NCBI GenBank assembly: GCA_964016885.1 | Contig: OZ024742.1 | Location: 195,734,001 to 195,798,000, forward strand | Direction: 5' to 3' | Origin: Eledone cirrhosa | Lineage: Eukaryota | DNA: 64,000 nucleotides | Shown: positions 51,215 through 57,136 of the stretch, in pieces | Layout: the number at the start of each line of letters is the position of its first letter | Numbering within the stretch: position 1 is the stretch's first letter | Translations under genes and position numbers: made by a program | Notes under the pieces: model-generated | Database searches by the model: none | Seen by the model: only the letters and a program-made list of their open reading frames with translations | What the model was told of the DNA's origin: nothing

Positions 51215-53054
51215 CAATAATGTTTTGAACAGTTCTTTGATTCTTATATTTCATATAACTGCTCTGTAAATCATCTGATGCTTTTACATTGAGCTACTTA
51301 ACTTACTGGTAATAATTTACTGGTAATACATTACTGCCTATCACTATTTAGGGTGTGTGTAAAATACTTATAACTGCATAAGGTTTTGTATTTACATAAC
51401 CATAAATAGTATTACTAATACTATATATATATATATATATATATATATATATATATATATATATATATATATATATATATATATATATATATATATATAT
51501 ATATATATATATATATTTAGTTATGTAATAAACAACATAAGGCAATTATTCCCTTTACCAGTGGTTTCTTAAAAGCAAAAAATGTTACTTTCAATCATTA
51601 GAATGAAAAAATCCTGGTCTATTTATTGATATTGGATTCTAAAAACAAAAATGCAATCTATATGAAAGTGAGGCTGGAGAAGGAAGAAGGAAAGGAAAAA
51701 TAAAATAAAAACACACATGCAAACACACACACACACAATTATATACATACACACACATATATATATATATATATATACATACACTCATAAATACACACAC
51801 ACATATACACATATATGTGTGTATATATATACACACACATACACATACATATACACATACATACATACACACATAAGTATCAACATATCCATACATACAC
51901 ATACATATATACAACCACACACACATATATACACACATATATATAGAAATAGAAATATATATATATATATGCGTACACATACACATACATAGCCATACAC
52001 ACATACATATACATACATACATACATACATACATACATACATACATACACACAATCATACCTATATACACACGTACATACATACACATACTTAATTGTAT
52101 ACATATGCATGCACAAAATTAGAAAAATATACACACACCTCTACATATTCACACACGCAAATAAATATAAGAAAAAATATATATAAAATAATAAACGAAA
52201 ATAAAGACTGTTATAAGTTGACAGCGATACAGGCAACAAATAAATGAACAAACACACGTGGTAAGCAATACACACAAATGCACGTACACATACATACGTA
52301 AAAATAAATACATACACACACTCTCACACATAAATATACATATACAAATACATAAACACATACATACGCATACACAAATACATACACAAACACACACACA
52401 TATACACATATACACACACATATACATACACATATATATATATATATACATATATATTTATATATATATATATATATACACATACATATATATATATATA
52501 TATATATATATATATATATATATATATATATATATATATACATATATATATATATATACATATACACACACATACATACATAGCCATACAATTATACACA
52601 TACAAATACGTACATATCACAAACATGCACAACCAAATACAAACACACACACACACACACACACACACACACACACACACACACACACACACACACACAC
52701 AGATATATATATATATATATATATATATATATATATATATATATATATATATATATATATATATATATATATATATATATCTGTGTGTAAAACTCAATCT
52801 TAGATAATTCATATGAACCTTATTTAACTCCAAAATATACATATATATATATATATAGTCATGTAATAAAAAACATAAGGCAATTATTCCATTCACCAGT
52901 GGTTTCTTAAAAGCAAAAGATTTTGCCTTCAATCATTAGAATGAAAAAATCCTGGTCTATCCATATATATACATATACACATATATATATATATATATAT
53001 ATATATACACATACACATACATACATTTTGGTATGTGAAGGGTAAGGCAAAAAA

Positions 53055-54256
53055 ATGAAAACTCTTTTGATGTTGCAATGGGTTCATATGACAGTGCGGA
53101 TGTGTGTGACTTAGTAGGATTATTCCTTCTCCACACCCTCAAAGAGAAATTTCCTTCCCATAATATCGGTTTATACCGTGATGACGGATTGGCAGTTTCT
53201 CATACCACCAACGGCCATAACCTTGATAAATTCCGTAAAGATTTAATCAATACTTTTGCTAATCTTAACCTTAAAATCATTATAGATACGAACCTTACCA
53301 ATGCTAACTTTCTTGATATTAATCTTGATCTACTTACCGCCTCTTTTGAACATTATCATAAACCTAATGAAAATCTTAGGTATATACACAAAGAGTCTTG
53401 CCATCCCCCTATAGTTTTTAATAATCTTATTCCTAACATTAGCCGTAGGATTTCTACCTTATCTTCGTCTATAGACATTTTTAATAAAGCCCTTAAGAAC
53501 AGCGGTTTTACAGAAAAATTTTTTTATTTACCTACTCCCCCCCCCCCCCTCTAAAACTAACCACAATAACAGGAAAAGGAAAATTATTTGGTTCACACCC
53601 CCTTCTCTCTAACTGTCAAAACTAATATAGGAAGGAAATTCCTTGAACTCTTAGATAAACATTTTCCTCCTAATCATAGATATTATAAGATATTTAATAG
53701 GAACGTAGTTAAGATCAGTTACTCTTGTTGCCCATCTATGAAGTCCAAGATCACTAGTTCAAATCATACGAGAACAAATCCAGGATGCAGTTGCAGGAAG
53801 CCGGATGAATGCCCATTGCAGGGCAAATGTAACACCAAATCTGTTGTTTATGAGGCTAAAATAACACCGTTAATCAACAACCAGCCAGCCAGGAGTGAGC
53901 GATATGTCGGCATGACTCAGGACAGGTTTAAAACCAGATTTTACTCATATGTCGCTTCTTTTAAGCACTCCGATAAACGAACAACAATAGCCCTCGCAAG
54001 TAAGGTGTGGGAATTCAAGGATAATAACATCCCGTACTCTATCGATTGGTCTATTTTAGACCATTCGAGGGAGTACCAAAGGGGCACAAAGAATTGTTCT
54101 TTGTGTACCACAGAAAAATATAGGATTTTGTTAAACTTGAGAGCCACTTCTGCTTGCCTGAACTCAAAGACCGAGATCTTTAGATGTTGTCCTCATCTGA
54201 AATCACATCTGATCTGTAACTGGATTGACATTCCTATGATAACTCAACCGCCTTGA
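53055..54256 (+). pseudogene. PLE RT (C-terminal half) + GIY-YIG, frameshift near 53550
   Basis: FDVAMGSYDSADVC, GLYRDDGL, FLDINL, CSCR..CPL, VVYEA..YVGMT, CSLC, CPH. Confidence 0.9.
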
Positions 54257-54937
54257 ACTCCTTTCCTGCTCTTTACTTCTACTACGGTTTTTATACCTGC
54301 TGAATCCACGTTCTGTACTCTTGTATTCTCTTTCTCCCTTATCTCCCCATATATTTAACCTTTTCCTATGTCTTTTTCCCCCCTCCTTTTCCCCCCTAAA
54401 TTTTTTTTTTTTTGCCTTACCCTTCACATACCAAAATGTATGTGTATGTGTATATATATATATATATGTGTGTGTATATGTATATATATATGGATAGACC
54501 AGGATTTTTTCATTCTGATGATTGAAGGCAAAATCTTTTGCTTTTAAGAAACCACTGGTGAATGGAATAATTGCCTTATGTTGTTTATTACATGACTATA
54601 TATATATATATATTTTCGAGTTAAATAAGGTTCATATGAATTATCTAAGATTGAGTTTTACACACATATATATATATATATATGTGTGTGTGTGTGTGTG
54701 TGTTTGTATTTGGTTGTGCGTGTTTGTGATATGTACGTATTTGTATGTGTATAATTGTATGGCTATGTATGTATGTGTGTGTATATGTATATATATATAT
54801 ATATATATATATATATATATATGTATGTGTATATATATATATATATATATATATATATATATATATATATGTATATATATATATATATATATATATATAT
54901 ATATATATATATATATATATATATATATATATATATA

Positions 54938-55936
54938 GATAATTTAATATATCAACTAACATAAGCGCACAGATGCACGCCCATGCCAGCAAATACACAG
55001 GTTATGTCATAGTACCTAGGTGGTTCAATGCAGGAGAATGCAGAACAATAATATAAAGGACGTAAAATAAGAAAATATTTTTTTTAAAAAAATTAAAAAA
55101 ATTTTTTTCTTACTTAAATTTTCACTCCAACTAATTAGTTTCTGCAATGGGATAAAGACAGTTACGTAATCCAACTGTCGAGAATTCATTGCGTCATCAG
55201 GAAGTCTATTCTCAGTTAAGTCTCCAGGCAATGCGCGGACACTGGCGGCTCATATAAAAATAATAATAATTCGGTAGATCGAACAGCTTGCGAGGACTAG
55301 ATTCTATGTACCGAAATTCTCACTGCTTCAAGTCAAATGGCCGATTCTAAAGAATCAATCACGTGACACAGAGGCTAGTTAGAAGGAATGGGATGGTAAG
55401 ATGACTGACGCCTACTAACACCCCAAAAAAAATTTTTTAGAAGTGGTTTTGACAAGTTTGCTCGACAAATCAGTGATTTGGAGATAAATATAGATAATTT
55501 AATATATCAACTAACATAAGCGCACAGATGCACGCCCATGCCAGCAAATACACAGGTTATGTCATAGTACCTAGGTGGTTCAATGCAGGAGAATGCAGAA
55601 CAATAATATAAAGGACGTAAAATAAGAAAATATTTTTTTAAAAAATCGGCCATTTGACTTGAAGCAGTGAGAATTTCGGTACATAGAATCTAGTCCTCGC
55701 AAGCTGTTCGATCTACCGAATTATTATTATTTTTATATGAGCCGCCAGTGTCCGCGCATTGCCTGGAGACTTAACTGAGAATAGACTTCCTGATGACGCA
55801 ATGAATTCTCGACAGTTGGATTACGTAACTGTCTTTATCCCATTGCAGAAACTAATTAGTTGGAGTGAAAATTTAAGTAAGAAAAAAATTTTTTTAATTT
55901 TTTTTAAAAAAATATTTTCTTATTTTACGTCCTTTA
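54938..55936. mobile_element. Retrozyme-like non-coding element, 555 bp unit, nested in (TA)n
   Basis: 54938-55090 repeated at 55493-55645; 55645-55936 is an inverted copy of ~55054-55347; HHRs at 55124-55205(-) and 55785-55866(+). Confidence 0.82.
55785..55866 (+). ncRNA. Hammerhead with extended stem II
   Basis: ACTTC-CTGATGA-GCAATG..(GACAGTT/AACTGTC)..CATTGC-GAAA-CTAATTAG-TT-GGAGT. Confidence 0.85.
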
Positions 55937-56889
55937 TATATATATATATATATATATATATGTATGTATATGTGTGTGTATATGTGTGTGTGTGTGTTTG
56001 TGTATGTATTTGTGTATGCGTATGTATGTGTTTATGTATTTGTATATGTATATTTATGTGTGAGAGTGTGTGTATGTATTTATTTTTACGTATGTATGTG
56101 TACGTGCATTTGTGTGTATTGCTTACCACGTGTGTTTGTTCATTTATTTGCCTGTATCGCTGTTAACTTATAACAGTCTTTATTTTCGTTTATTATTTTA
56201 TATATATTTTTTCTTATATTTATTTGCGTGTGTGAATATGTAGAGGTGTGTGTATATTTTTCTAATTTTGTGCATGCATATGTATACATTTATGTATGTG
56301 TATGTATGTACGTGTGCATAAAGGTATGATTGTGTGTATGTATGTATATGTATGTGTGTATGGCTATGTATGTGTATGTGTACGCATATATGTATATATA
56401 TATATATATTTATATTTCTATATATATGTGTGTATATATGTGTGTGTGGTTGTATATATGTATGTGTATGTATGGATATGTTGATACTTATGTGTGTATG
56501 TATGTATGTGTATATGTATGTGTATGTGTGTGTATATATATACACGCATATATATGTGCATATGTGTGTGTGTATTTATGAGTGTATGTATATATATATA
56601 TATATATATATATATATATATATATATATATATATATATATATATATGTGTGTGTGTGCGTGTATGTGTGTATTTATGAGTGTATGTATATATATATATA
56701 TATGTGTGTGTGTGCGTGTGTGTGTGTGTGTGTGTGTGTGTATAACTGTGTGTGCGTGTGCGTGTGTTTGCATGTGTGTTTTTATTTTTTTATTTTATTT
56801 TTCCTTTCCTTCTTCCTTCTCCAGCCTCACTTTCATATAGATTGCATTTTTGTTTTTAGAATCCAATATCAATAAATAGACCAGGATTG

Positions 56890-56949
56890 TTTCATTCTGA
56901 TGATTGAAAGCAAAATTTTTTGCTTTTAAGAAACCACTGGTAAATGGAA
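56890..56949 (+). ncRNA. Complete type I hammerhead ribozyme (GUA site)
   Basis: CATT-CTGATGA-TTGAAAGC/GCTTTTAA-GAAA-CC ACT GG-TA-AATG. Confidence 0.88.
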
Positions 56950-57136
56950 TAATTGCCTTATGTTGTTTATTACATAACTATTAAGCTCTGTTACTTACAT
57001 AGAGCACTCTTTTTTCCTGGACTTTTCCGACGGAATTACTTCATTTACACACACACACACACACAAATTCGGCCTACTTATATGAAATGATGAGTTAGCA
57101 AAGCACTCGATAAGTTAGGTCCTTAGAGTAATAACA

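Follow-up and report, generated by a model that had tools for sequence, protein, structure and literature searches.

A putative Hydra-type Penelope insertion with inverted, microsatellite-rich arms in a monoamine oxidase intron of Eledone cirrhosa

How does more than a kilobase of microsatellite-like DNA, set between two hammerhead ribozymes, come to stand twice and in opposite orientation on the two sides of a broken retroelement? The question is raised by a locus in the octopod Eledone cirrhosa, contained in a window of 64,000 nucleotides (assembly GCA_964016885.1, contig OZ024742.1, positions 195,734,001 to 195,798,000 of the forward strand; all positions below are those of the window). Nine exons of a monoamine oxidase gene map in order on the minus strand of this 64-kb window, from 61404 to 29078, and the intron between the exons at 59136 and 49371 contains an insertion of a Penelope element whose sequence features point to the Hydra clade. 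The low-complexity block in its two arms was most likely copied by the reverse transcriptase (RT) of the element, and not by a local duplication of DNA.

The two arms carry four 104-nt hammerhead-bearing terminal repeats (pLTRs), which can be aligned with one another and adopt a type I hammerhead fold: units a and b in the right arm, downstream of the open reading frame (ORF), and units a′ and b′ in the left. The inverted duplication of the whole unit–spacer–unit block, proposed in the initial annotation, is borne out by these four units and by the alignment of the arms. A global alignment of the reverse complement of 51519-53055 with 54407-56979, leaving out an insert nested in the right arm (54939-55936), yields 1381 matches and 36 mismatches, a count that includes unaligned ends and to which large slippage-type indels must be added. 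Eight blocks, picked by hand so as to leave out pure repeats, contain 10 differences between the arms at 875 sites outside the pLTRs and 7 at 208 sites within them (17 of 1083 in all). From core to core, the hammerheads are 1338 nt apart in the left arm, as had been reported, and 1384 nt apart in the right arm without the nested insert. Arrays of at least five TA units account for 240 nt of the left block (nine arrays) and 294 nt of the right block (ten arrays). The four differences between a and b are present in both arms, indicating that linkage of a, the block, and b in the template preceded the copying. Three of these four fixed differences are A-to-G in unit a, one of them at the cleavage triplet, and could reflect A-to-I editing of an RNA template (n = 3).

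A scan of the window finds 12 hammerhead motifs, compared with a single match in total over 20 shuffles. Rfam at its gathering threshold gives no hammerhead match in the window, and the hammerhead pattern has no match in a metagenome collection. Single-strand hammerhead folds are not much more stable than shuffled sequences (z −0.8 to −2.0), and folding energy alone is no support for hammerheads.

The Hydra clade is defined by a CxCX5C linker and by CxxC and CxH motifs around conserved E and N residues in the absence of CCHH, and its members insert into (TA)n (PMC8557442). Judged by its sequence, the present copy has the character of a Penelope insertion of the Hydra clade, complete with the inverted copy and the tail that are usual, every clade feature open to testing having been found. 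The ORF begins at about 53056 inside RT motif 4 (YRDDG) and continues into a C-terminal GIY-YIG endonuclease (VVYEAK..YVG), and its relatives cover both parts. The translation contains the linker (CSCRKPDEC) as well as CxxC and CxH (CSLC..E and CPH); by eye, no cysteine lies within the GIY-YIG hairpin and CCHH is absent. From RT motif 4 onward, 32 of 46 residues match Hydra-1_Obim of Octopus bimaculoides, as compared by eye with a published alignment. A full-length relative at 1836-3692 is 40% identical over 169 amino acids; where the clade has the N-terminal motifs RWK and DKT, this relative has RWT and DKT. The left end adjoins a 95-nt TA array, and the right end runs into the tail and (CA)n. 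Near the 3′ end lies a canonical hammerhead, with family variants at the free core position and at stem pairs (56901, 56927, and 56947); it shares the ACCA-N-TGGT stem III of the clade (PMC8557442), and its stems are unlike those of Hydra-1_Obim, so that another family is represented here. Pfam, run on seven ORF pieces, matched neither RT nor GIY-YIG in this copy and gave a weak GIY-YIG match for 3653-4294 of the full-length relative. In the metagenome collection, none of the relatives of that full-length Hydra protein was confirmed, and a cluster look-up of 6 of the 48 endonuclease homologues returned no names. Two frameshifts near 53520-53605 and a gap of seven codons with respect to relatives mark the copy as dead.

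The ends of the arms bear most directly on how they were copied. One stretch, 56765-57320, was compared with reads and contigs in 4 of 24 sequencing runs (X1, X4, X6, and X22, of which X4 and X6 belong to the same study). The pLTR is very abundant, occurring on at least 3363 contigs in X1. After 56981, other copies go on as (TA)n, in 238 reads in X22 and 22 contigs in X1; position 56981 thus marks the 3′ end of the family, and it is there that the left arm stops. The right arm continues into 56981-57035, which is abundant in its turn and is joined to the pLTR, with at least 31 letters on both sides, on record 5 of X1 and record 24 of X6; the same joint on record 14 of X4 has only 19 letters on one side. 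What appeared to be the right flank is therefore a one-sided tail, and the structure does not end at 56980, where the initial annotation had closed it. A GCTC..GAGC..ACTC motif in the tail recurs at 1827, in the 5′ region of the full-length relative, and tails at one end have been described for Penelope elements (PMC8557442, PMC11167929). A candidate target-site duplication, TATTTA/TATTAA, was dropped when the right flank turned out to be family tail. The repeated DNA beyond the tail (57069-57321) is either its continuation or a separate element. The inner end of the left arm falls in an A7 run (53049-53055), the mirror of a T13 run at 54401-54413, and this site is likely a microhomology junction between the arms. 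A left arm that ends at the 3′ end of the family, a right arm that continues into the tail, and a junction at an A/T run together favour reverse transcription over local DNA duplication. In X22, six opposite-strand joints, each with 3-6 reads, fall within 56852-56957, which suggests that other copies fold back too, at other points.

Two 20-nt anchor sequences within the block had been proposed as probes of its origin, and both lie in the left block (51664-51683 and 52217-52236). Both occur exactly twice in the window, a number reached in none of 100 shuffles. Anchor 1, at 56815-56834 in the right arm, had been taken as unique, and in fact lies in the last ~75 nt of the right block, which are high-copy family sequence. 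In X1, the summed word depth, which is not a copy number, is 176,951 over 56822-56840 compared with 164,858 over the 5′ half of the hammerhead of unit b; eight listed X1 contigs have depths of 6-28, and about 1,900 reads in X22 cover the anchor 1 region. Records 9 and 10 of X4 and record 17 of X6 contain the whole of anchor 1 together with 22-28 letters of the pLTR, and record 19 of X6, spanning 56829-56924, is alone in extending at least 31 letters to both sides of 56875, while covering 6 of the 20 anchor bases. High copy number, and contiguity with the pLTR on contigs of two other organisms, identify anchor 1 as element sequence. The 3′ transduction of host microsatellite DNA suggested in the initial annotation is thus retained in part: copying of the block by the element is most likely, and a host origin of the spacer is hypothetical.

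The explanation judged slightly better than evenly probable is that of a broken Hydra-type Penelope copy whose arms derive from two complementary DNAs (cDNAs), the TA/TG block having been copied as part of the 3′ region that belongs to the element, before its normal end at unit b, with a sister copy as the likely origin of unit a. A (TA)n microsatellite would have been cut and both strands would have primed a cDNA, a possibility suggested by the Anolis Poseidon protein, which cuts and extends both strands in vitro and for which two internal start sites of reverse transcription define the tail (PMC11167929). One cDNA would have started at the pLTR end to give the left arm and the other at the tail end to give the right arm, and the two would have been joined at the A/T run. 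Inverted copies are the standard Penelope arrangement, and Penelope-13_HM likewise has an inverted, 5′-truncated copy at its 5′ end (PMC8557442). The downstream pLTR ribozyme had been expected to bound the copy, but the arms continue at least ~37 nt past the cleavage triplet, and an end defined by cleavage was rejected; in vitro, hammerhead cleavage is dispensable for insertion (PMC11167929).

The two units of the right arm differ in their surroundings. Unit a has TA-rich DNA on both sides without the upstream anchor sequence of the family, and the DNA preceding it is unrelated to that preceding unit b. The stretch upstream of b belongs to the family and is missing from a, which lies between TA tracts; b is therefore read as the normal 3′ end of the family, and a is likely a short earlier insertion, a sister copy that would have landed in the block before copying. 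The rest of the block would be borne by the family rather than captured by one donor. A reading of the locus as a retrozyme was rejected, as only the 104-nt unit is repeated, the flanks of a and b are unrelated, and the units are linked to an RT ORF. Non-LTR retrozymes do resemble the locus in having two same-strand type I hammerheads of pLTR origin with a possible dimer (bioRxiv 10.64898/2026.07.22.740005); they consist, however, of tandem units that each have a complete type I hammerhead, without an ORF, and the locus here has no tandem array but two units per arm, one of them with GUG, and an attached RT ORF.

Several observations weigh against a block that belongs to the element. None of its 496 complex 16-mers recurs elsewhere in the window, the copy-number evidence covers its last ~75 nt only (56765-56814 was skipped as repeat), and among the contigs and reads over 56765-57320 no record spans the whole stretch. 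Published Hydra consensus sequences are mostly shorter than 3 kb and have short 3′ untranslated regions (UTRs), in contrast to the ~1.5 kb with 32% simple repeat, and a second hammerhead unit inside, that separates the stop codon from the final hammerhead here. Two other Hydra-type copies in the window, with 1014 and 2138 nt from stop codon to hammerhead, have dinucleotide-repeat fractions of 0.00 and 0.02 in their 3′ regions compared with 0.32 here. Unit a lies 258 nt past the stop codon, and it is solely their adjacency that assigns the ORF and unit b to one family. Neither a donor copy nor an empty site nor a target-site duplication came to light, and the ends of the insertion lie in microsatellites.

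The best-placed alternative makes unit a the true end of the element: one donor copy would have read through ~1.2 kb of microsatellite DNA of the host as far as a downstream family copy that ends in b, with retrotransposition of the entire stretch. The position of a recalls the short 3′ UTRs of published Hydra elements, and the block, which has no repeats elsewhere in the window, resembles low-complexity DNA of the host. Precedents exist in Adineta vaga, where Pen1_Av and Pen3a_Av have a spacer of 0.9-1.5 kb between the element body and the 3′ pLTR, and direct and inverted pLTRs around mobilised non-element DNA (PMC3846280), such as the NRPS gene mobilised by Pen3a (PMC3846280; also PMC6431247). 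Those elements are of the Penelope/Poseidon group. Their spacers have been shown to be host DNA that differs from copy to copy, target-site duplications are present, and an empty allele is known for the NRPS case (PMC3846280); the spacer here is microsatellite-rich. Moreover, the upstream sequence missing from a is about as abundant in the family as the hammerhead itself, a lies between TA tracts, anchor 1 is element and not host sequence, and no donor locus was seen. Capture of host DNA is thus considered unlikely, though it is a serious contender.

An origin at the locus itself is quite improbable. The right arm would have been resident, and the left arm would have arisen either through inverted duplication at the level of DNA or through a transcript of the resident arm that re-inserted locally and lost its 5′ part. 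Within the window both anchors occur only in the two arms, inverted pairs beside (TA)n are common (9 of 14 pairs checked have a TA tract of at least 16 nt at one or both outer ends), and insertion into the element's own pLTR is allowed for in the Anolis work (PMC11167929). However, a DNA-level event would have no reason to stop at the 3′ end of the family and omit the tail, re-insertion requires an additional deletion, and inverted copies are standard products of the Penelope class. A chimeric fold-back produced in the library or the assembly is barely credible: the region is repeat-rich, is spanned by no record over 56765-57320, and has a junction at 53055 outside the positions compared with reads, but 17 of 1083 aligned sites and many indels distinguish the arms, only one of which has the 998-nt insert, and the ends coincide with biological boundaries of the family.

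The nested insert, 998 nt long and non-coding, is found in the right arm only. It has inverted arms of 296 nt with one mismatch, a direct duplication of 152 nt, TA on both sides, and one hammerhead per arm (55200 on the minus strand and 55790 on the plus strand), neither of which has similarity to units a or b. Its restriction to one arm, its near-identical internal arms, the flanking TA, and hammerheads of another family suggest a later arrival, which would have followed the copying; the claim that a later element had landed in one of the carried (TA)n arrays is thereby supported. On the favoured explanation, a single event by a (TA)n-targeting element deposited about 19 new (TA)≥5 arrays, and such arrays were struck twice by hammerhead-bearing elements. 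In Litopenaeus vannamei, microsatellites inside recently transposed Penelope copies likewise move with the element and then lengthen, and Penelope-borne microsatellites have been proposed as a route to genome-wide microsatellite expansion (PMC7878876); clade, hammerheads, inverted arms, and re-use of targets are not named in the passages of that paper cited here. A review from 2013 regarded microsatellite transduction by L1 as conceivable but unreported (PMC3812793). A literature search that left most subscription papers and bioRxiv supplements outside its reach found nothing on carried (TA)n serving a Penelope element again as its target.

Table 1. Features of the insertion and of the exons on either side of it (positions in the window).
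Feature	Position	Strand	Details
Monoamine oxidase exon, downstream side of host intron	49212..49371	-	
(TA)n array adjoining the left end; likely target site	51422..51516	.	from sequence
Unit b′	51519..51622	-	core CTAATGA, triplet GUA; sense in host pre-mRNA
Left low-complexity block	51623..52856	-	1234 nt, TA/TG-rich
Unit a′	52857..52960	-	core CTAATGA, triplet GUG; sense in host pre-mRNA
Inner end of left arm	52961..53055	-	short TA/TG tract and end of 3′ UTR
5′-truncated Hydra-type Penelope ORF	53056..54256	+	RT from motif 4, thumb, CxCX5C linker, GIY-YIG endonuclease
Pyrimidine-rich 3′ UTR and short TA/TG tract	54257..54493	+	
Unit a	54494..54597	+	intact core at 54515, triplet GUG
Right low-complexity block	54598..56875	+	1280 nt without nested insert
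Younger nested non-coding element	54939..55936	.	in (TA)n, right arm only
Unit b	56876..56979	+	intact core at 56897, triplet GUA
Family tail	56980..57066	+	right end only, into (CA)n at 57047-57066
Further repeated DNA	57069..57321	.	fold-back at 57136-57321, ending in (TA)n
Monoamine oxidase exon, upstream side of host intron	59136..59224	-	from fetched homologues

The host exon is 92% identical to amine oxidase of Argonauta and 91% to that of Octopus sinensis; the upstream exon, queried alone, had no match in Pfam or in PDB, and its identity came from the fetched homologues. As the insertion lies in an intron of a minus-strand gene, the left units a′ and b′ are sense in the pre-mRNA. The arms (51519-56979) would pair there as a double-stranded hairpin of ~1.5 kb, a likely editing substrate. 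A satellite at 44750-49190, with a 40-nt unit, a 10-nt sub-periodicity, and a length of ~4.4 kb, begins right after a monoamine oxidase exon, and the whole-window output of the repeat finder is dominated by a satellite.

Both left cores read CTAATGA and not CTGATGA, the same G-to-A change, and both antisense cores (a and b) are intact. The change falls at core position G5 and is predicted to be inactivating. In units a and a′, the cleavage triplet is GUG, which should not cleave under the NUH rule. In unit b′, furthermore, stem I is reduced to two pairs beside the cleavage site and there are four private substitutions. Right-arm a and b co-fold as a dimeric hammerhead at −39.1 kcal/mol, compared with −15.1 and −15.0 kcal/mol alone, and the dimer fold places the core of a over the GUA of b. 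Over 208 nt, the left units carry six substitutions and the right units one, where 1.19 are expected (Poisson P 0.0014), and the chance that two changes fall on the same site with the same base is 2.5-3.8%.

A doubtful addition to any of the models above is silencing, through selection by the host, of the two ribozymes that lie in sense orientation in the monoamine oxidase pre-mRNA. Folded together into a dimeric hammerhead, an a/b pair would cut the GUA of b, so that both cores would have had to be lost. The nine minus-strand exons in order around the insertion, the far stronger co-fold, the shared change, and the excess of substitutions on the left agree with this proposal, and an engineered intronic hammerhead has been shown to knock down its host gene in zebrafish (PMC11856399). 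Nevertheless, this is one locus and a post hoc test; the share of six out of seven substitutions in the left units reaches only P 0.06, and the background rate was taken from low-complexity DNA, in which substitutions may be concealed by gaps. A single gene conversion between a′ and b′ would yield the shared change, and the same G-to-A may exist among family variants, those listed being a subset. Three single sense-strand hammerheads in the same gene (33544, 55200, and 61872) are intact, transcription reaches the complementary arm before the left units, which that arm could sequester, and minimal metazoan hammerheads cleave weakly in vitro (PMC4209133). The shared core change could thus reflect host selection, gene conversion, or chance. 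Retrozymes have been reported to be depleted in introns (bioRxiv 10.64898/2026.07.22.740005), and the literature search, most subscription papers again lying outside it, found nothing on strand-biased loss of intronic Penelope hammerheads.

The window contains further elements of the same kinds. A near full-length Hydra-type element at 1697-5410 on the plus strand has an RT frame of 618 amino acids, an endonuclease frame of 214 amino acids, a 3′ region of 1014 nt, a hammerhead at 5312, (TA)n at both ends, and a short inverted hairpin at its 5′ end; a pLTR with an inverted tail at 27959-28230 is of the same family. Two more 5′-truncated Hydra-type copies start at (TA)n on the plus strand, at 33915-36670 and 11862-12722, the former with an AT-rich 3′ region of 2138 nt and a SINE-like insert before its hammerhead at 36481. 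A second Penelope family (61625-64000 and 10556-11477), with a CCHH-type endonuclease and inverted arms, has a TG-rich 3′ UTR common to its two copies at 87% identity and hammerheads at 61872 (minus strand) and 11207 (plus strand). A related hammerhead motif with an altered core lies near 29600-29645. Further inverted pairs occur at 57445-58732, 33387-33802, 32928-33081, 8395-9183, and 31464-31866, that at 33387-33802 being a perfect palindrome, both arms of which bear a hammerhead. Translations of ORFs alone point to an LTR-retrotransposon remnant with 248-nt direct repeats at 14386-18454, a LINE-like remnant on the minus strand at 37157-40950, and a mariner-like transposase remnant at 715-1526.

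The ingredients of this locus, namely (TA)n targeting, inverted copies, tails, spacer capture, and Penelope-borne microsatellites, are already published. New details are the insertion in a monoamine oxidase intron and the core change shared by both sense-strand hammerheads. The locus is a clean example in which the published ingredients are joined, with about 19 TA arrays added and such arrays struck both before and after copying. Feedback on the genome-wide microsatellite load, as extrapolated from this one locus, would become measurable in octopods if the arrangement were family-wide. The strand-biased loss of cores bears on the open question of whether Penelope hammerheads cleave in vivo. 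A broader picture, unlikely on present evidence and advanced very tentatively, is that an octopod Hydra family carries kilobase arrays of (TA)n targets in its 3′ region, so that each jump seeds landing sites, while hosts silence sense intronic hammerhead pairs. If host silencing were true, the locus would provide evidence from the genome for RNA cleavage in vivo by dimeric Penelope hammerheads, and if the whole were true, element and microsatellite would undergo a runaway co-expansion, creating landing sites for the family and for its sister families.

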